Below are positions 1,717 through 64,000 of a stretch of DNA of 64,000 bases, in pieces; position 1 is the stretch's first letter; every line of letters begins with the position of its first letter. The DNA comes from Escherichia coli. Lineage in GTDB: Bacteria > Pseudomonadota > Gammaproteobacteria > Enterobacterales > Enterobacteriaceae. Below the pieces are notes generated by a model. The model did not search any database. It was given only the letters and a program-made list of their open reading frames with translations, and was not told the origin of the DNA. The position numbers and the translations under genes are program-made. The stretch lies in assembly GCF_003018235.1 (NCBI RefSeq), contig NZ_CP027437.1. The stretch is one strand, 5' to 3'.

Positions 1717-4413
<2,697 letters not shown>

Positions 4414-4414
<1 letters not shown>

Positions 4415-4995
4415 TACAACTTCACCAAACCACTAAAGCCCATAAAGGCCAGAGACATAAGACCTGCGGTAATTAACGCAATGGCATTACCGCGAAAAGG
4501 TGCCGGGACATCAGCCACAGCAAGGCGTTCGCGGATGGCGGCGAAAAGCACCATCACCAGCGAGAAACCGACAGCGGCGGAAAAACCGTACAGCGCCGAC
4601 TGCAAGAAATTGTGCCCGAGATTGATATTCAGCAACGCCACGCCGAGCACTGCACAGTTGGTGGTGATAAGCGGCAAAAAAATCCCCAGCAGACGGTAAA
4701 GCACCGGGCTGGTTTTGCGCACCACCATCTCGGTGAACTGCACAACCACAGCAATCACCAGAATAAACGCCAGGGTGCGCAGGTAAATCAGATTAAGCGG
4801 GATCAAAATCCACGTATCGATAAGCCAGGCGCAAATAGACGCCAGCGTCATCACAAACGTTGTAGCCAGCCCCATGCCCATCGCGGTTTCCAGCTTTTTG
4901 GAAACCCCCATAAACGGACAGAGACCGAGAAACTTGACCAGTACAAAGTTATTGACCAGTACAGTTCCGACAAACAGTAACAGGTAGTCAGTCAT
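4414..4995 (-). CDS. rsxA: Rsx/Rnf complex subunit A (membrane)
   Basis: 193-aa hydrophobic ORF at the head of the rsx operon. Confidence 0.9.
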
Positions 4996-5071
4996 TTTTC
5001 GGCCTGAAATAAAAAAGCCGCCTATTATCCGTTAATCCAGAGCAGGCGACAACAGGTTAACTGTAAGGTTA

Positions 5072-5512
5072 TTACGGATTCACAAACGTCGCTTTCACCC
5101 GCGACGAGCGTTTAAAATAGGGGACGATCAATGCGGTTGCCAACAAAGTAAACAGTAACTGGCGAACGGCTATGCCATCTTCCACGGGTGAAAAAGCGAA
5201 CGCTTTTACTGCCAGCAATACGGAAATAAGCAGCCAGATAATATAGTGTTTAGGAACACAACGCCGACGTTTAAAGAAAGCGATGGTCAACCACAGTGTG
5301 TAATACCACATGGCGATAGCGGTAATAAAAGAAACGCCCCATAAGATTTGTGTCGTCAGTGCTTGTTCGCCGAGCGTTTGAAATGTTTGCGGAGAAGATA
5401 ACGCAGCGGTATACAGCAACAACGCCAGCGTCGTACTTAACAGAGCGACTAAAAGCCAGGCCAATGGGCCAAGCAACCAGCCTCCAATACGTTGTGGCGT
5501 TGTGGTGGTCAT
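5072..5512 (-). CDS. ydgK: Inner membrane protein YdgK
   Basis: ORF 5072..5536; start trimmed to the internal Met (MTTTTPQRIGGWLLGPLAWLL) giving 146 aa; conserved position upstream of rsxA. Confidence 0.8.
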   Translation of the reverse strand: MTTTTPQRIGGWLLGPLAWLLVALLSTTLALLLYTAALSSPQTFQTLGEQALTTQILWGVSFITAIAMWYYTLWLTIAFFKRRRCVPKHYIIWLLISVLLAVKAFAFSPVEDGIAVRQLLFTLLATALIVPYFKRSSRVKATFVNP

Positions 5513-50098: not shown

Positions 50099-52524
50099 TT
50101 ATATTTTTTCGATCTCGACCAGATTAGTGTGCTGCGGGTTTCCCTTCGCCAGTGGTGAAGGGCGCAGAGTGGTTAGCGTATTCACACAGCCGCCATGGTC
50201 GATTTTATCGCCAGACATATTGGCCTCGTGCCAGGCTCCCTGGCCCATAGCGCTAACCCCAGGGAGAATGCGTGGTGTCACTTTGGCTGGTAGCCGAACT
50301 TCGCCACGATGGTTATACACCCGCACCATATCGCCGTTGGCAATCCCACGTTTCTGTGCGTCTATAGGGTTGATCCACACCTCCTGACGGCAGGCAGCCT
50401 TCAGGACATCAATGTTGCCGTAGGTCGAGTGAGTACGGGATTTGTAATGGAAACCGAACAGTTGCAGTGGAAAGGTACTACGTTCAGGGGAGTCCCAGCC
50501 TTCAAAGGTTGAGGCATAAACCGGCAGTGGGCTTATCACTTCATCTTTTTCCAGTTCCCAGGTACGGGCAATTTCCGCCAGCTTGCTGGAATAAATTTCA
50601 ATCTTACCGGAAGGCGTTTTAAGTGGATTTGCCTCGGGGTCGTCACGAAATGCTTTGTAGGCGACAAAATGACCATTGGGATCTTTACGCTTATAGATAC
50701 CCATTTTTTTCAGTTCGTCGTAAGACGGTAACGCCGGATCTTTGGCAAGCATTTTGGCGTACAGATGTTGTAACCATTGTTCCTGCGTGCGACCTTCTGT
50801 GAACTTTTGATAGACGTCAGGTCCAAGACGTTTCGCGACCTCACTCAGGATCCAGTAAATCGGTTTGCGTTCGAATTTTTCGCTGGTGACTGGCTGAAGG
50901 AAAATGAGATATCCCATGTTACCGGCGTAGTCGTTAGGAATAATATCTTCCTGCTCAACGGTCATCAGGTCTGGCAGCAGAATGTCGGCATATTTTGCCG
51001 ATGAGGTCATAAAGTTTTCGATGACCACAATCATTTCGCATTTCGATTCGTCCTGCAGAATTTCATGCGTTTTGTTGATGTCAGAATGCTGATTAACGAG
51101 GGTATTTCCCGCATAGTTCCAGATGAACTTAATGGGCACATCCAGTTTATCTTTGCCCCGGACACCGTCGCGGATTGCCGTCATTTGCGGGCCATGATCG
51201 ATAGCATCTGTCCAGCTGAAGCAGGAGATTGACGTTTTGACCGGATTATCCAGCACCGGTAGGCGTTCTATGGTAATGGTATAGGTCGATTCACGCGCGC
51301 CACTATTCCCGCCGCTGATGCCGACATTGCCCGTCAGAATAGGCAACATCGCAATAGCACGTGCAGTCAGCTCGCCGTTTGCCTGGCGTTGCGGTCCCCA
51401 GCCCTGGCAGATATAAGCGGGTTTTGCTGTGCCAATTTCACGCGCCAGTTTGATGATACGGTCCACCGGGATACCGGTAATTTGCGAAGCCCACTGCGGC
51501 GTTTTCGCTGTTTTATCGTCACCTTCACCAAGAATATAGGCTTTATAGTGACCATTTTTTGGTGCATCTGCGGGTAAGGTTTTTTCGTCATAGCCGACGC
51601 AGTATTTATCGAGAAAAGGTTGATCAACGAGATTTTCGTTAATCAATACCCAGGCAATACCCGCAACCAGCGCGGCATCGGTGCCCGGGCGAATAGGTTG
51701 CCATTCGTCTTCACGACCAGCAGCTGTATCGGTATATCGCGGATCGATAACAATCATTTTGCGTTCGATTTCTCGCGCGCTTTTTCAAGAAGATAAGTGA
51801 TGCCACCGCCGCTCATGCGGGTTTCTGCCGGGTTGTTACCAAACATCACGACCAGCTTGCTGTTTTCAATATCCGTGGTGCTGTTGCCATCATTACTGCC
51901 GTAGGTGTAGGGCATGGCACAGGAAATTTGCGCGGTGCTGTAGGAGCCATACTGGTTGAGTGAACCGCCGTAGCAGTTCATCAGGCGTTTGACCGCCGAG
52001 GCGGATGGCGAAGAGCGGGTCATATTGCCGCCAACGATCCCTGAAGAGTACTGAATATATACAGCCTCATTGCCATATTGTTCGACGGTTTTTTTCAGGC
52101 TACTGGCGATAGTATCCAGGGCTTCATCCCAGCTAATCCGTTCGAATTTGCCTTCGCCGCGTTTGCCCACGCGTTTCATTGGGTAATTCAAGCGATCGGG
52201 ATGATTAATACGCCGACGGATGGAGCGACCGCGCAAACAGGCACGTACTTGATGATTGCCATACTCGTCGTTGCCGGTGTTGTCAGTTTCCACCCAGGTC
52301 ACTTCATTATCTTTAACATGCAGACGAAGTGCACAGCGGCTACCACAGTTGACGGAACAGGCACCACAGAGCACTTTCTCGCTGGCCTGTTGTACCGCTG
52401 CCGCTGCACTGCGCAGGGTGAACGGTAAAGAAAAACCGCCTGCAGCCAGCGCCAGAGAACCTATCGCGGTAGATTTAACGAGTGTTCTGCGGCTGATGCC
52501 CACCATTTGTTCATTTTTGGACAT
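50099..52524 (-). pseudogene. ynfE: Tat-exported molybdopterin oxidoreductase YnfE (ynfF paralog), split by a -1 frameshift
   Basis: ORFs 51754..52524 (256 aa, Tat signal SRRTLVKSTAIGSLALAA) and 50099..51757 (552 aa) join as ...EKSNAK|MIVIDPRY...; the break is an A4 run on the coding strand where A5 would keep the frame. Confidence 0.8.
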
Positions 52525-55246: not shown

Positions 55247-55451
55247 GGACATAAATCCATTTTATCAATAAGATACAAGGAAGTGTCAGCTGACAAAAGG
55301 TATTCTATTTCATCTTTTGTCAACCATTCACGGCGCAAATATACGCCTTTTTTTGTGATCACTCCGGCTTTTTTTGATCTTCATGCTTGTATGGTAGTAG
55401 CTCAGTTGCGTAGATTTCATGCATCATGACAAGCGATGCAAGGAATCGAAC

Positions 55452-56666
55452 ATGAAGATCGTAAAGGCTGAAGTTTTTGTTACCTGTCCGGGGCGTAATT
55501 TCGTCACATTAAAAATCACCACTGAGGACGGTATTACGGGCCTTGGGGATGCCACCCTCAATGGACGTGAGCTTTCCGTGGCCTCTTATTTGCAGGATCA
55601 CCTTTGTCCGCAGCTTATTGGTCGCGATGCGCACCGTATCGAAGATATCTGGCAGTTTTTCTATAAAGGTGCTTACTGGCGTCGCGGTCCGGTTACGATG
55701 TCGGCCATTTCAGCGGTTGATATGGCGCTGTGGGATATTAAAGCCAAAGCTGCCAACATGCCGCTTTACCAGTTACTCGGCGGCGCGTCTCGTGAAGGGG
55801 TGATGGTTTATTGCCATACCACCGGTCACAGTATTGATGAAGCTCTGGATGATTATGCTCGTCATCAGGAGCTGGGATTCAAAGCCATCCGCGTGCAGTG
55901 CGGAATCCCTGGTATGAAAACCACCTACGGCATGTCGAAAGGTAAAGGTCTGGCTTATGAACCCGCAACTAAAGGACAGTGGCCGGAAGAGCAGCTGTGG
56001 TCGACGGAGAAATACCTCGATTTTATGCCGAAATTGTTTGACGCGGTACGTAACAAGTTTGGTTTTAATGAACATTTGCTGCATGACATGCACCATCGCT
56101 TAACGCCTATTGAAGCGGCGCGCTTTGGTAAAAGCATTGAAGATTATCGCATGTTCTGGATGGAAGACCCGACGCCTGCGGAAAACCAGGAATGCTTCCG
56201 TCTCATTCGCCAACATACCGTCACACCCATCGCGGTGGGTGAAGTCTTCAACAGCATCTGGGACTGCAAGCAACTGATTGAAGAGCAACTTATCGATTAT
56301 ATCCGCACTACGCTGACCCACGCGGGTGGCATTACCGGTATGCGCCGGATTGCCGATTTTGCTTCGTTGTATCAGGTACGTACTGGCTCACACGGTCCTT
56401 CCGATTTGTCACCAGTCTGCATGGCTGCGGCGCTGCACTTTGATCTGTGGGTCCCCAATTTCGGTGTCCAGGAGTACATGGGTTATTCCGAACAAATGCT
56501 TGAAGTCTTCCCGCACAACTGGACTTTCGATAACGGCTATATGCATCCGGGAGACAAACCGGGTCTTGGCATCGAATTCGATGAAAAGCTGGCGGCGAAA
56601 TATCCCTATGAACCTGCTTATCTACCAGTCGCACGTCTGGAAGATGGCACGCTGTGGAACTGGTAA
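55452..56666 (+). CDS. rspA: Starvation-sensing protein RspA (enolase superfamily, mannonate dehydratase-like)
   Basis: ORF trimmed to [40 protein letters not shown] (404 aa). Confidence 0.9.
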
Positions 56667-56677
56667 GGAGTAAGATA

Positions 56678-57697
56678 ATGAAAAGCATATTAATTGAAAA
56701 ACCGAATCAACTGGCGATTGTCGAACGTGAAATACCCACCCCGTCAGCGGGTGAAGTACGAGTAAAAGTAAAACTTGCCGGAATTTGTGGTTCAGATAGC
56801 CATATTTATCGTGGGCATAATCCTTTTGCGAAATATCCGCGCGTCATTGGTCATGAATTCTTTGGCGTCATTGATGCAGTGGGTGAAGGCGTGGAAAGCG
56901 CCAGAGTCGGTGAACGTGTTGCAGTCGATCCGGTGGTCAGCTGTGGGCATTGCTATCCGTGCTCTATAGGTAAACCGAACGTTTGTACGACACTGGCTGT
57001 ATTAGGTGTGCACGCTGACGGTGGTTTCAGTGAATATGCCGTGGTGCCGGCAAAAAATGCGTGGAAAATTCCTGAAGCAGTGGCCGATCAATATGCGGTG
57101 ATGATCGAACCTTTTACCATTGCGGCTAACGTTACCGGTCATGGTCAACCGACTGAAAATGATACCGTTCTGGTTTACGGTGCCGGTCCAATCGGCCTGA
57201 CGATCGTTCAGGTATTAAAAGGCGTCTATAACGTTAAGAATGTGATTGTTGCCGATCGCATTGATGAACGACTGGAAAAAGCGAAAGAGAGCGGGGCAGA
57301 CTGGGCGATTAATAACAGCCAGACACCGCTTGGCGAGATTTTCGCTGAAAAAGGCATAAAGCCGACATTAATTATCGATGCGGCTTGTCATCCTTCAATC
57401 CTGAAAGAAGCCGTAACGCTGGCTTCTCCAGCGGCACGTATTGTATTGATGGGCTTCTCCAGTGAACCGTCTGAAGTGATTCAGCAAGGAATTACCGGAA
57501 AAAAACTCTCTATTTTCTCTTCACGCTTAAATGCAAATAAATTTCCGGTCGTTATCGACTGGTTAAGTAAAGGGTTAATTAAACCAGAAAAATTAATTAC
57601 CCATACGTTTGATTTCCAGCATGTTGCTGATGCCATTAGTTTATTTGAACAGGATCAAAAACATTGCTGCAAAGTCTTACTCACTTTTTCTGAATAA
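56678..57697 (+). CDS. rspB: Starvation-sensing protein RspB (Zn-dependent alcohol dehydrogenase family)
   Basis: ORF trimmed to MKSILIEKPNQLAIVEREIP (339 aa); GxGxxG and Zn-ligand Cys motifs. Confidence 0.9.
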   Translation: MKSILIEKPNQLAIVEREIPTPSAGEVRVKVKLAGICGSDSHIYRGHNPFAKYPRVIGHEFFGVIDAVGEGVESARVGERVAVDPVVSCGHCYPCSIGKPNVCTTLAVLGVHADGGFSEYAVVPAKNAWKIPEAVADQYAVMIEPFTIAANVTGHGQPTENDTVLVYGAGPIGLTIVQVLKGVYNVKNVIVADRIDERLEKAKESGADWAINNSQTPLGEIFAEKGIKPTLIIDAACHPSILKEAVTLASPAARIVLMGFSSEPSEVIQQGITGKKLSIFSSRLNANKFPVVIDWLSKGLIKPEKLITHTFDFQHVADAISLFEQDQKHCCKVLLTFSE

Positions 57698-57754
57698 TAC
57701 CAATAACGGCGAGTAAGTAGTACGCATCTTACCTCTTTTTTAGAGATAACCATT

Positions 57755-57883
57755 ATGACAATAGAAAAACACGAAAGAAGCACTAAGGATTTGGTGAAAG
57801 CAGCAGTATCGGGATGGCTGGGCACTGCGCTTGAATTTATGGATTTCAAGAGTCATACGTGTCAACTATTTGATAAATATTAA
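57755..57883 (+). pseudogene. ydfJ: N-terminal remnant of MFS transporter gene ydfJ, truncated by prophage insertion
   Basis: 42-codon ORF MTIEKHERSTKDLVKAAVSGWLGTALEFMDFKSHTCQLFDKY reads like an MFS sugar/metabolite-transporter N-terminus and stops abutting the integrase 3' end. Confidence 0.55.
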
Positions 57884-57884
57884 A

Positions 57885-59180
57885 TTAATTTTTCATTGCT
57901 TCGTTATGGGGCATGGTTGGGGCAAACTCGCTTAACTGTGTATTTAACAAAGCTACCTGTGCATTATTGTTTTCAGACATCCATTTTCCGTATACCTGAA
58001 ATACCATTTGCGCATCTGCATGGCCCATCTGGTTTGCTATAAATGCCGGGTTAGCACCAGCTGTCAGCGACCAGCAGGCATAAGTATGTCTCGACTGATA
58101 TGATTTTCGATGGCGGAGTCCGGCACGTTTTATCGCTGCGTCCCACATCTGCCTTATTGAGTCAACGGTAAAATGGTCACCATAATTTTTTACTCTCGCT
58201 GACACTTCAGGTTGAAAAACAAAGGTGCATTTTTGTTTTTCTGTTCTGCCATACTCTCTGAGGTGAACATCAATGATATGCTCTTTGCTCAGTCTCGTTA
58301 ATGTCATCTGACTCCGGAGAGCGTCGATTGCTGGCTTAATAAGATGAATGACCCGATTGGTTCCCGCCTGTGTTTTTGGTACCGTGAAACGGTCTTTTGC
58401 TAAATTTCTCCTGATCATCATTGTTCCATTTTTCAGATCTATGTCCTCCCATCCAAGTGCACACAGCTCACCAGGGCGAACGCCAGTATAAACAGAAACA
58501 CACCATAAATTTTTTGCTTGCTGATTTCTGCACGCATCGATAAGACGGATAAATTCCTCCCGCGAAAGAGGATCCGGAATGGTTCTTGATTCCTTTAATG
58601 GCGAGATCCCCTTAAACGGATTATCTGGCAGGTAACCGTTATCAACACCAAACTGGAACACGGCGTTAAGATTTGTCATGTAATTATTTACAGTTACAGC
58701 CGATCTCCCTGGTTGTGTAACAATATAGTTACTTTTGGGGATCTGGTATCCAGTCAGTAGCTCTTTACGAACCTCCAGTAATTTTTCTTTATTAATCGAT
58801 GAGGCAAGATTTTTTTCACCGATTATGCTCAGGATATTTTTGATGACGGCACGGTATGTGTTGAGTGATGTTTTGGCGACTTCAGTTTCTTTCAGTGCCA
58901 GAAATTTTTCAGCCAGTTCTTTTATGGTTAAATCTTGTCGGGCCTCACCAAATTTTTCCAGATTGCGTGAGGAGGGAAACTGTTTTGCATAGTCGAAAAC
59001 ACCAGTTTTTATTGCGTAACAAACAGAGGAGCGTAGTTCACCTGCAACGCGCCTGTTTTTTGCTGTGTCAGGAACCCCCAGATTTTCCCTGACTCTTACG
59101 CCTTTATAAACAAACCAGATACGTAATTTCCATCCATGGTTTTCCACGCCTGTCGGATATTTCATTTCAACTTCTCTCAT
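57885..59180 (-). CDS. Phage tyrosine integrase (lambda Int family), apparently intact
   Basis: 431-aa ORF with C-terminal catalytic-domain residues consistent with tyrosine recombinases (R...HxxR...Y in ...SRHTYACWSL...); start could be M1 or M6. Confidence 0.85.
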   Translation of the reverse strand: MREVEMKYPTGVENHGWKLRIWFVYKGVRVRENLGVPDTAKNRRVAGELRSSVCYAIKTGVFDYAKQFPSSRNLEKFGEARQDLTIKELAEKFLALKETEVAKTSLNTYRAVIKNILSIIGEKNLASSINKEKLLEVRKELLTGYQIPKSNYIVTQPGRSAVTVNNYMTNLNAVFQFGVDNGYLPDNPFKGISPLKESRTIPDPLSREEFIRLIDACRNQQAKNLWCVSVYTGVRPGELCALGWEDIDLKNGTMMIRRNLAKDRFTVPKTQAGTNRVIHLIKPAIDALRSQMTLTRLSKEHIIDVHLREYGRTEKQKCTFVFQPEVSARVKNYGDHFTVDSIRQMWDAAIKRAGLRHRKSYQSRHTYACWSLTAGANPAFIANQMGHADAQMVFQVYGKWMSENNNAQVALLNTQLSEFAPTMPHNEAMKN

Positions 59181-59199
59181 TAGTTAGTGTGGCTTTTAG

Positions 59200-59451
59200 T
59201 CAAGTAAGATGACGTCTTGGTCTCGCTGATGCCTGGCGCAAAATCCAGCGATCAATTTCTTCCAGGTTGTAAAAGCATGGACTGTTATCCCATGGCATAC
59301 CGTCATGAGCGACATGCTTATATTCCCTTCCTTCCATAAACGATTTTTCCCGGGCCTTTTTTAACGTACCTTTTTTTATTCCTTTCAGCGCAATTAACTG
59401 CTCTTCGGATACCCATTTGCCGGGAGAGACAATCATGATTACTTCGCTCAT
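59200..59451 (-). CDS. Putative excisionase / small DNA-binding protein
   Basis: 83-aa basic ORF immediately upstream of int in the usual xis position; no family match verified. Confidence 0.5.
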   Translation of the reverse strand: MSEVIMIVSPGKWVSEEQLIALKGIKKGTLKKAREKSFMEGREYKHVAHDGMPWDNSPCFYNLEEIDRWILRQASARPRRHLT

Positions 59452-59523
59452 CGATTTCTTTATCTCTTACATCAGACGAGCGCCGGTTGCAGAATACCAG
59501 TCACAACCGGCGACAGTTGAACA

Positions 59524-61995
59524 TTAAGAATCAGCCTGACTCGGGATCAGTTTTTGCCAGATAACTGAAACGTATTTTGCCTGGTAACGGGCGTCATCAA
59601 GTGCATTATGGCGCTCACCTTCGAATGGAATAGCCGTTCTGGCATCGAAGTCTATGGCTTTCCCCAGCTCAACGATTGTGCGTACATCGCGATCGTTGTA
59701 GTAACGCCACGGGCAGGGGATCCCCTGCCGTTCGTATGAACGGCGCAAAATCGTGTTGTCGAAGTTGGCTCCATTTCCCCAAACCTGAACAAAAAATTCA
59801 CCGGAGTTTTCGTCGATAAATTCCCGCAATTGTAACAGTGCATCATCTAACGGGATTTCATCGGTCATAATGGCAGATTGCGCTTCGCGTGATTGCTTAA
59901 GCCACCATTTAATGGTGTCCCGATCAATGACTCCGCCAGCAGTTTCCAGATCGATAGTCTTACTAAATTCCGGTCCCATATCTCCGGTTTGCGGATCGAA
60001 AAATATTGCACCTATTGAGATGATCGGGGCATCAGGATTTTTTCCCATGGTTTCAAGGTCGATCATTAGATGGTCACACGTCCTGCTGGTGGATGTGATT
60101 TCGTGATGACCGTTCACCTTAATTGAGTGATCTGCCGTCTCGCCAGTTTCATTATCGCTATTGTGATGCTGATTGCCGCCAGTGTTCTCCTTGTGTGGAT
60201 GTTCAGCGCCTTCCATTTCCTCCGGATCATCTTCCTGAACTTCAACCTGATACTCTTCATCGAATGTTTCTTGGTATGTTGCGTCGCCCATCACCGCGCC
60301 ACAATCAGGGCAGTTGCCGCCGCCGGTCTGACCGCAGGCGGTGCAGACTTTTTCCACTTCCTGTTGCGCCACTGGTTCAGGCTGTTTCGTTTCTGGCTCG
60401 TTTTGTAACGCATTTGTGCTGTTTTGTTCCGCTTTTTGGTAGTTCCGTTCCGATTCATGCTGGTTCTGGTTCACAGAATCGCGGGTCTGGATCCCCTTAA
60501 CCCATTTCGGATCATTCGGGTCACTAATCCCTTCAACAAATTCACCACGTGATGCAGCAAGCAACTTATCGGCGTCAGGCTGGCTGATATTGGCTGCCTG
60601 CATAATTTTGTTTACTTCGTCAGCGGTAACTTTTATCGGCTCTGGTTGTTCTGAATCTTCAGCGGTATCTACATTTTGCGGTAAGCCCGTGTATGTGCCA
60701 TTTTTTCGGGCAAAATATTCTTCTTTTGTGATTTCAGTGGCGCCAGCAGCCAGTGCCTTATCCAGACCAGAAAGTTTGTTTGCGCGACCGTATTTTTCTC
60801 CGTCCTTATCTGCGAAGAGGAAATAGAACGGCCCCTCACGCTCTACAGATGGTTCAGCTTCCGGCGCGGTTTCATTTTTTGGGATATCAGATACCTCAGT
60901 TTCCACTGCATCAGTTTGTGTTTCTGATGACTGGAGAACATCAACAGTGCCCAGGTCTGTTTCTTCATTCTCAAACACGCCCTTTGTCGTCAGGTATTCG
61001 CAGATATATTTGTTCAGTGCTATGGGATCTTTGTGAATGTCGATCGGACGCTCACGGACAAGGCCAAAAATAGTCTGGCGGTCGTAGCGAAGGGCATCAG
61101 GCTGTTTGCGCATTGATGCCGAGATACGCTTCCAGTCTTCGCGGTCGTTGTCGATAACTTCTTTTTTTGCCCAGCGATGGATGCTGCCGTCAATGTTTCC
61201 GGCATCCACATCACCAGGCCAGAGAGCGTAGGCCAGTTCGTCATCCAGTGTTTTCCATGTCTGCTTGTATTCGCGATGAATGGCAGCAATGACCGGGCTG
61301 ATTTTTCCTGTTGAATTTTCAGTGTACTGTTGATTGGCTCTGGCGCGGGCGAGATCAACAACAGACGTGTATTTTCCGGTTTCCTTGCGTTCACCTTCGC
61401 GACGTTTTTTCCAGATGCGCATCTCTGCCTGAATTTCGGGCCATTTAGCACCAGGAATACATTTATGCTTAACCCACCCAATGGCGTGCAACTTAAGCTC
61501 CGGATACATGGCGTTAACTTCTGGCATTTTCATCAACGCTTCAACGATATGTCCGTCGAATGTTGCCATGTCTTCCTGCAACAATTCCTGTGCGCTAATA
61601 ACCATATCAACGGTGATGTTTTCACATGTGTCGAACTTAACCATGACAGCGTTCTGTACTTCAGGGGCCAGCTTGTCAAAAGTGACGTTCATCGGATCGG
61701 ATTCAGTCTCAACCGGGACAAAAGAAGCAGACTCCTCATCCCAGCGGTTTTCCTGCATATATTCAGCATCCCATGAATCGAGGGCAGGGCGGGGTATGCC
61801 AGGTTTATCCTCGCAGACAATAAATTTATAAGCGCAGTCCTGAGCAGCCGGATAATGTTCCAGGAACTGCCAGTGAAATTTTGCTCGAGCACGGCGTTCG
61901 TCGCCAGCTTCAATGGCTGTGGCTACAGCCACAGCGCCTTCTTCCCTTGTTGCCAGTTCGTCAGGAATAGCGGCGCAAATAAAGACTTTACTCAT
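59524..61995 (-). CDS. Prophage large exonuclease-like protein with C-terminal DnaQ-like DEDDh 3'-5' exonuclease domain and a central CxxC-x9-CxxC zinc-ribbon motif
   Basis: 823-aa ORF; C-terminus carries motifs DLET, WGNGANFDN and HNALDDA; middle carries CTACGQTGGGNCPDCG; acidic low-complexity linker. Confidence 0.65.
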   Translation of the reverse strand: MSKVFICAAIPDELATREEGAVAVATAIEAGDERRARAKFHWQFLEHYPAAQDCAYKFIVCEDKPGIPRPALDSWDAEYMQENRWDEESASFVPVETESDPMNVTFDKLAPEVQNAVMVKFDTCENITVDMVISAQELLQEDMATFDGHIVEALMKMPEVNAMYPELKLHAIGWVKHKCIPGAKWPEIQAEMRIWKKRREGERKETGKYTSVVDLARARANQQYTENSTGKISPVIAAIHREYKQTWKTLDDELAYALWPGDVDAGNIDGSIHRWAKKEVIDNDREDWKRISASMRKQPDALRYDRQTIFGLVRERPIDIHKDPIALNKYICEYLTTKGVFENEETDLGTVDVLQSSETQTDAVETEVSDIPKNETAPEAEPSVEREGPFYFLFADKDGEKYGRANKLSGLDKALAAGATEITKEEYFARKNGTYTGLPQNVDTAEDSEQPEPIKVTADEVNKIMQAANISQPDADKLLAASRGEFVEGISDPNDPKWVKGIQTRDSVNQNQHESERNYQKAEQNSTNALQNEPETKQPEPVAQQEVEKVCTACGQTGGGNCPDCGAVMGDATYQETFDEEYQVEVQEDDPEEMEGAEHPHKENTGGNQHHNSDNETGETADHSIKVNGHHEITSTSRTCDHLMIDLETMGKNPDAPIISIGAIFFDPQTGDMGPEFSKTIDLETAGGVIDRDTIKWWLKQSREAQSAIMTDEIPLDDALLQLREFIDENSGEFFVQVWGNGANFDNTILRRSYERQGIPCPWRYYNDRDVRTIVELGKAIDFDARTAIPFEGERHNALDDARYQAKYVSVIWQKLIPSQADS

Positions 61996-62088: not shown

Positions 62089-62280
62089 TTAAAGACCTGC
62101 CGGGATTTCGATATTATCCTGGTGAATAACTTTATCGACCGGGTAACAGTTACCGGGAATTTTCTGTTCGGTTGCTGCAGTCATACACTCCTGTATTGTC
62201 CTGTGAACACTGACTGCAATATCAACTGGCTCTCCGGAAACAAGAAAAACTGTCAGAACAAGCGCAAATGCTGAATTCAT
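62089..62280 (-). CDS. Hypothetical small prophage protein with hydrophobic N-terminus
   Basis: 63 aa from the internal Met (MNSAFALVLTVFLVSGEP...); reverse-complement ATG at 62278-62280 overlaps the upstream ORF stop (ATGA). Confidence 0.35.
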   Translation of the reverse strand: MNSAFALVLTVFLVSGEPVDIAVSVHRTIQECMTAATEQKIPGNCYPVDKVIHQDNIEIPAGL

Positions 62281-62465
62281 TGTGCACATCCTTTTGGCAT
62301 CAGACGTAAACGAGCCAGCATTGAAACAATGCATATTTTATTTAATAGCTCCCGTTCTTGTTTTCTCTTGTTAATGGCATCTTCAGTAAATACAGGGTTA
62401 CTGATAGTGACACCAATTTCAAAACAACCTTCAGACGTATTAACGTTTGGTAATAACGTTTTCAT
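62277..62465 (-). CDS. Hypothetical small prophage protein
   Basis: 62 aa from the Met of MKTLLPNVNTSEGCFEIG...; GAGGA Shine-Dalgarno 7 nt upstream; translationally coupled to the downstream small ORF. Confidence 0.35.
   Translation of the reverse strand: MKTLLPNVNTSEGCFEIGVTISNPVFTEDAINKRKQERELLNKICIVSMLARLRLMPKGCAQ

Positions 62466-62636: not shown

Positions 62637-64000
<1,364 letters not shown>

Follow-up and report, generated by a model that had tools for sequence, protein, structure and literature searches.

A probable attL of a Qin-type prophage inside the Escherichia coli gene ydfJ

What happens where the chromosomal genes rspA and rspB of Escherichia coli give way to a phage integrase gene, and at which base does the bacterial DNA end? 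This question is raised by a 64,000-nucleotide stretch of contig NZ_CP027437.1 (hereafter the window, to whose positions all coordinates refer), in which a 42-codon open reading frame (ORF) lies against the 3' end of an integrase gene. A sequence-only reading had proposed that this small ORF carries the MFS-transporter-like N-terminus of ydfJ, that a prophage is integrated within this gene, at the locus of the defective prophage Qin of K-12, and that the attachment core lies near 57850-57885. Our analysis indicates, with a probability of about 95%, that the region is the attL (B-O-P') of a lambdoid prophage of the Qin type (PPydfJ), in other words its junction on the integrase side, and that this prophage was inserted inside ydfJ by Int-mediated site-specific recombination. 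The target gene was thus correctly recognized, while the core had to be moved.

Results and Discussion

The bacterial side of the junction

The features that define the bacterial side are as follows.

56678-57697, plus strand: rspB, for a Zn-dependent oxidoreductase; no chromosomal gene closer to the junction is intact (ORF; colinear with the annotated rspB of strain JNE25-001).
57755-57847, plus strand: ydfJ' fragment, codons 1-31 of a gene for an MHS-family MFS transporter (100% nucleotide identity to the intact ydfJ of strain NDM1).
57755-57883, plus strand: hybrid 42-codon ORF, composed of 31 ydfJ codons and 11 phage-derived codons (translation MTIEKHERSTKDLVKAAVSGWLGTALEFMDFKSHTCQLFDKY).

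The small ORF is preceded, on its own strand, by rspA (55419-56666) and rspB (to 57697); upstream of these are ynfA, on the strand of rspA, and ynfB and speG, on the opposite one. The reference for an uninterrupted locus was strain NDM1, in which the gene order is rspB, ydfJ (455 aa), ydfI, ydfZ and rspR. Comparison with its rspB-ydfJ region revealed that window positions 57695-57847 are 100% identical and that the similarity breaks down past 57847, save for the dinucleotide AG at 57849-57850. A blastn search of the window with the intact ydfJ gave a single match (ydfJ 1-96 = 57755-57850, E = 1e-43), and searches of the window by blastn and tblastn for the C-terminal part of the gene returned nothing beyond its N-terminal 96 bp (35 aa). 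The chromosomal DNA is therefore unbroken from rspB to ydfJ codon 31, and the switch to phage DNA occurs at TTATGGATTTC.

In the intact YdfJ (455 aa), the Pfam MFS_1 match begins at residue 21, and the break consequently falls within the first transmembrane helix. A full-length, multi-helix MFS fold is not encoded here, the window having ydfJ codons 1-31 only; the small ORF is a gene fragment and no transporter. Its stop codon (57881-57883) is separated by one base from that of the minus-strand integrase gene (57885-57887), so the ORF does end where the integrase 3' end begins.

Elsewhere in the chromosomal part of the window, ynfE (50099-52524, minus strand), encoding a selenate/tellurate reductase subunit, is split into ORFs of 552 and 256 aa around position 51757. 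By comparison with JNE25-001, one base is missing from a T run, which causes the split and is the sole indel in 21 kb of chromosome that is otherwise 99.0% identical. Either ynfE is a pseudogene by frameshift or the sequence contains an error here.

The phage side of the junction

Beyond the small ORF, the following features were recognized in the approximately 6 kb of prophage that the window contains.

57885-59165, minus strand: tyrosine integrase, full-length, 426 aa when counted from the start codon of its RefSeq relatives (431 aa for the whole ORF, which reaches 59180).
59200-59451, minus strand: excisionase, 83 aa, DUF1233 family (Pfam PF06806, 1.2e-30; annotated as excisionase or xisR in relatives).
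59524-61995, minus strand: YdfE-type exonuclease of the early-left operon, 823 aa (Pfam Rv2179c-like, 2.3e-67).
62089-62280, minus strand: ydfD-like gene (DUF1482) (ORF; colinear in JNE25-001, YJ6 and K-12).
62277-62465, minus strand: dicB (ORF; colinear in JNE25-001, YJ6 and K-12).
62640-62691, minus strand: DicF small RNA gene, intact (Rfam RF00039 at 72.5 bits, for a gathering score of 48; E = 4.8e-14).
62844-64000, plus strand: IS100 (IS21 family) within the prophage, running off the window end (left boundary approximate, 62832-62848).

The adjoining gene encodes a prophage integrase, as had been supposed: the protein contains the Pfam domains Arm-DNA-bind_2 (1.6e-22) and Phage_integrase (4e-18), and an excisionase gene lies alongside. 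Alignment of the catalytic domain with the integrase of Tn1549 located the R, RHT, MGH and Y motifs (...TGVRPGEL..., ...SRHTY..., ...MGH... and ...VYGKW, respectively). When solved structures were searched by sequence, the best match was the Tn1549 integrase and no lambda Int chain was found at E = 0.001; the analogy with lambda made below is therefore one of domain content and site layout only.

DicF was the sole Rfam match in the 64-kb window, with dicB and the ydfD-like gene downstream of it. Together, int, xis and the genes for the exonuclease, YdfD, DicB and DicF constitute a Qin-type early region. An identical exonuclease protein occurs in 1169 blocks of the genome collection, and in the six loci listed it is found beside the same int, xis and rspB.

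The attachment site

The position of the attachment site was deduced from an alignment of five sequences (n = 5), i.e. (i) the attL of the window, (ii) the attB of NDM1, (iii) the attR of JNE25-001, (iv) the attR of K-12 and (v) an attP-like junction between tandem prophages of the O157:H7 strain TB21-1. Two features resulted from it; neither has a strand.

57837-57847: identity block TTATGGATTTC, invariant in 5/5 aligned sequences (located by script).
57832-57850: extended imperfect att TGAATTTATGGATTTCAAG (attL, attB, attR and attP-like alignments).

With one indel and one mismatch allowed, the site spans 57832-57850 and reads TGAATT(T)ATGGATTTC(C/A)AG. Its length is 19 bp in attB and attL but 18 bp in attP and attR, the differences being one indel in the T run and one C/A substitution; the attB form is TGAATTTATGGATTTCCAG, the attP form TGAATTATGGATTTCAAG and the attR form TGAATTATGGATTTCCAG. 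In the attL of the window, the left part is of the attB type (TTT) and the right part of the attP type (A at 57848); the attR of the relatives shows the reciprocal, which places the crossover within approximately 57839-57847. In both JNE25-001 and K-12 the attR comprises the phage P arm, TGAATT-ATGGATTTC, CAG and the remaining part of ydfJ, adjoining ydfI.

The same limits emerged from a megablast search of 5426 complete E. coli genomes with window positions 57000-58400 as the query, in which matches to phage-side relatives begin at 57832 and those to intact ydfJ end at 57847-57850. The integration within ydfJ therefore holds, since the bacterial DNA is that of the intact gene up to 57847 and phage DNA follows. 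The core itself is at 57837-57847 (att 57832-57850); the region 57850-57885, to which it had been assigned, is the P' arm, and the true core lies approximately 15-40 bp to its left. For annotation purposes, the left border of the prophage is set at 57848, where the shared core is followed by the first base of phage type.

An "18- or 19-bp att sequence" was defined for prophages at ydfJ by Nakamura et al. (PMC8112680, S7 Fig legend), and attP of this site was obtained there by PCR (PMC8112680). The 18/19-bp att deduced here from aligned sequences agrees with that description.

A contiguous, attP-type P-O-P' arrangement was found in the O157:H7 tandem prophage junction and in 13 IMG/VR contigs. 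All 13 of the latter are prophage predictions from isolate genomes and so are probably tandem junctions rather than free phage DNA.

The O157:H7 genomes match the megablast query only from 57832 on, with approximately 92% identity, and TB21-1 has no match to the rspB part of it. The TB21-1 junction (locus L006, approximately 4880-5100) joins two prophages; it is flanked by a DinI-like gene and nleG7 and, across the junction, by a truncated integrase gene. It is an attP-like hybrid site in a prophage cluster.

The other prophage end in relatives

In JNE25-001, the same end of int adjoins rspB and, approximately 47 kb away, a ydfJ fragment annotated as "missing N-terminus" is located beside ydfI; a complete lambdoid prophage with head, tail and lysis genes lies between the two halves of ydfJ. 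In K-12 MG1655, the cryptic prophage Qin (1632277-1652745) is situated between ydfJ (b1543, the C-terminal fragment) and intQ/ynfP/rspB. The attR and the ydfJ fragment lacking its N-terminus were found in these relatives only (JNE25-001 and K-12); in the window, IS100 runs off the end approximately 6 kb into the prophage, which leaves the far prophage end outside it.

These data bear on the idea that the MFS-like N-terminus is a chance resemblance and that the integrase element sits in an intergenic region downstream of rspB. No Pfam match was found for the 42-aa peptide alone, as this idea would have it; however, 93 nucleotides and the 60-bp region upstream of them are identical to intact ydfJ and its surroundings, and in both JNE25-001 and K-12 the missing rest of the gene is found at the opposite end of the prophage. 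The DNA identity to intact ydfJ and the att alignments refute a chance likeness, and we regard this explanation as practically untenable.

Candidate protein-binding sites in the P' arm

The integrase has an arm-binding domain of the lambda Int type and arm sites were therefore looked for, in an attP rebuilt from the P arm of JNE25-001 and the P' arm of the window. Two motifs stood out in the P' arm.

57863-57875, minus strand: IHF-consensus site, candidate H'-like (TATCAAATAGTTG, a perfect fit to WATCAANNNNTTR).
57905-57925, plus strand: TGGGGCA twice in tandem, at 57907 and 57918 (spacing 11 bp), within the 3' coding end of the integrase gene.

The IHF consensus is kept in two divergent variants of the P' arm, TATCAATTAGTTA and TATCAAATGGTTA, which suggests that 57863-57875 is a putative IHF site of this arm. 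As regards the repeats, the 7-mer TGGGGCA occurs 11 times in the 64-kb window against 10.7 expected, i.e. at chance frequency overall, and it is the adjacent pairs that stand out. A counterpart tandem pair, TGGGGCA/TGGGACA, is present in the P arm of relatives at -137/-126, also 11 bp apart, and the tandem pairs are kept in 12/13 IMG/VR junctions (the 13th is cut short), in which the flanks diverge. We infer that the TGGGGCA repeats are candidate arm-type sites of the integrase in the P' arm. The int gene ends 37 bp from the core, and these candidate sites thus fall inside its coding sequence.

The hybrid ORF corresponds to ynfP

The small protein YnfP of K-12 (b4534, 36 aa) is the product of the same hybrid ORF at the same junction, with 35/36 residues matching the ORF of the window. 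Codon 37 is TAA in K-12 ynfP and CAA in the window, where the ORF reads on to 42 aa. The 42-codon ORF is therefore the counterpart of ynfP and not a new gene. It is annotated as a gene in some assemblies, for instance with 42 aa in one of the analysed loci (L010) and 36 aa in another (L012).

Most simply, the hybrid ORF is a by-product that inherited the ydfJ start. It could instead be a selected gene for a functional, YnfP-like peptide, and it is in this sense that the gene calls in L010 and L012 may be read, as may the detection of K-12 YnfP by chromosomal epitope tagging (PMC6001520, Table 1). Expression, however, would be expected simply from the inherited ydfJ translation start. Moreover, the length varies (36 aa in K-12, 42 aa in the window) through a single TAA/CAA change, the peptide has no Pfam family, and PPydfJ variants already differ strongly across the 11 phage-derived codons. 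The phage-derived tail also lies opposite the conserved IHF-consensus site, so that constraint on the att arm would explain such conservation as there is. A selected small protein is accordingly very unlikely, and the by-product remains the preferred reading of the ORF.

IS100 and the state of this prophage copy

The IS100 element starts approximately 150 bp beyond DicF, i.e. approximately 5 kb from the junction. Its istA gene contains an in-frame stop codon at 63743-63745 (GLR*LHD), by which the transposase is broken. In strain YJ6, an IS100 is located 139 bp further along, with the rest of the prophage kept downstream of it; the distance between the two sites gives no evidence of shared ancestry, and the YJ6 element looks like an independent insertion. 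IS100 was found in none of the six listed loci with an identical exonuclease.

The junction could be real and yet border a prophage remnant that has decayed or been rearranged through the IS100 insertion, a deletion or an inversion between prophages; its int-proximal 5 kb would then perhaps be unlinked from a matching attR and ydfJ C-terminus, and precise excision would be impossible. An IS100 with a broken istA does interrupt the prophage shortly beyond DicF, and the Qin prophage of K-12 is itself decayed, since what corresponds to 59045-61228 was lost there in an IS2-associated event. Inversion between a prophage at ydfJ and one at ompW has also been published (PMC8112680), and such inversions together with IS100 mean that the far end could have been rearranged. 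On the other side, int and xis are full-length in the window, no sign of rearrangement was seen within it, and YJ6 retains the rest of its prophage in spite of an IS100 so close by. A remnant of this kind is possible but rather unlikely. An attL belonging to a Qin-type prophage is the reading that we retain, and the int and xis genes of this copy, both of full length, look functional.

Among the prophages with an identical exonuclease (L007-L012, locus positions approximately 2000-5500), a cargo slot between hokD and a DUF977 gene varies; the slot falls outside the portion of the prophage that the window covers. Its contents include relBE, a 932-aa Cap4-nuclease/AAA_22/SEC-C protein, a 341-aa RelA_SpoT protein, QueH, and an SMEK_N protein with a methyltransferase. 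The slot looks like a variable hotspot of defence or accessory genes.

A model of integration and its consequences

By the proposed mechanism, the prophage would have entered through Int-mediated site-specific recombination within ydfJ codons 27-32. The lambda Int analogy, drawn from the Arm-DNA-bind_2 domain and the conserved motifs, suggests that Int would bind the core and bridge to the arm-type sites (TGGGGCA at 57907/57918 and the P-arm pair at the far end), while IHF would bend the P' arm at 57863-57875. By the same analogy, Xis (59200-59451) would direct excision, recreating attB and an intact ydfJ.

As a consequence of the insertion, ydfJ is a split pseudogene, broken at codon 31/32, and its start region now drives a hybrid peptide of 42 aa. 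The prophage separates the C-terminal 424 codons of ydfJ, together with ydfI, from rspAB. These consequences are of value mainly for annotation and open no new biological question.

The rspAB/ydfJ/ydfI cluster has been linked to sugar-acid (L-gulonate) catabolism; a literature search on the function of YdfJ and RspAB yielded nothing useful. A pattern scan from rspB to ydfJ' detected no terminator near the junction, and the fold of the rspB-ydfJ spacer (-6.4 kcal/mol, z = -0.43) is no better than that of shuffled sequences. As the stretch from rspB to the junction lacks a convincing terminator and ydfJ' and int are convergent, host transcription may run antisense into int. It is a highly speculative extension, and to us a most improbable one, that transcription from the rspAB/ydfJ promoter reads antisense into int so as to tie the integrase and excision to a host starvation or sugar-acid regulon, and that the YnfP-like peptide might have a role of its own.

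Prevalence of the junction

In the megablast search described above, whole-query matches with the integrase beside rspB were found in 2661 of the 5426 complete E. coli genomes (49%). In a second class of genomes, to which NDM1 belongs, the match ends at query positions 848-851, corresponding to window positions 57847-57850, and the annotation is "ydfJ: MHS family MFS transporter YdfJ". No genome of the 5426 is an exact match to the window; the closest reaches an identity of 99.4% across 23.8 kb and of 99.8% across the junction. A prevalence of 48% in 638 genomes has been published for Qin integration at the 5' end of ydfJ, with truncation of the gene (PMC6379469). Occupied in approximately half of the complete genomes, ydfJ is among the most common prophage sites of E. 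coli.

Comparison with known systems

The closest known system is the Qin (Kim) prophage of K-12, which shares with the window the attachment site, the core, the hybrid small ORF (ynfP), ydfE/exonuclease, ydfD, dicB and DicF. The proposal that both occupy the same locus is borne out by the K-12 gene order (rspB, ynfP, intQ, Qin and ydfJ b1543) and by a DNA identity of 98.9% over 57000-59044 (rspB, ynfP and intQ). The two differ in that K-12 intQ is a pseudogene, whereas the integrase of the window is full-length. Qin of K-12 (L004, 22844-24709) has no equivalent of window positions 59045-61228, the gap lying beside IS2E; this IS2-associated loss took the 5' end of int (encoding the N-terminus) together with xis and the greater part of the exonuclease gene, all of which are full-length in the window. 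In addition, K-12 ynfP stops six codons before the ORF of the window, and Qin is without the IS100 found here beyond DicF. Relative to K-12 Qin, the arrangement in the window is the ancestral, undeleted one, and its prophage copy, unlike Qin, keeps both int and xis in full length.

The PPydfJ prophages of STEC and EPEC strains (Nakamura et al. 2021, PMC8112680) are, like that of the window, integrated in ydfJ with an 18- or 19-bp att. Their integrase is related to the one described here (approximately 92% DNA identity over the 3' part of the gene). They form tandem clusters with attP-like internal junctions, and the STEC elements carry the type III effector genes nleG and nleC as well as prophage-in-prophage attB sites, none of which is present within the 6 kb of prophage in the window.

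With the attL (BOP') of phage lambda, the junction shares its layout, i.e. core, P' arm, int and xis, as well as the arm-binding N-terminal domain of Int. The IHF consensus by the core and the repeat pairs, one in each arm, may be further lambda-like traits at the level of sequence motifs. The junction departs from lambda in its core, its arm motifs and its target: lambda integrates between gal and bio, whereas the present site is inside a coding gene.

The junction is thus already known, having been described for K-12 and for Shiga-toxin-producing strains. Since integration of Qin in ydfJ (PMC6379469) and the att and attP of this site (PMC8112680) have been published, the finding is correct but not new, and the only additions of the present analysis to these known systems are the exact coordinates, the corrected position of the core, the link to ynfP, and the candidate arm-type and IHF sites.
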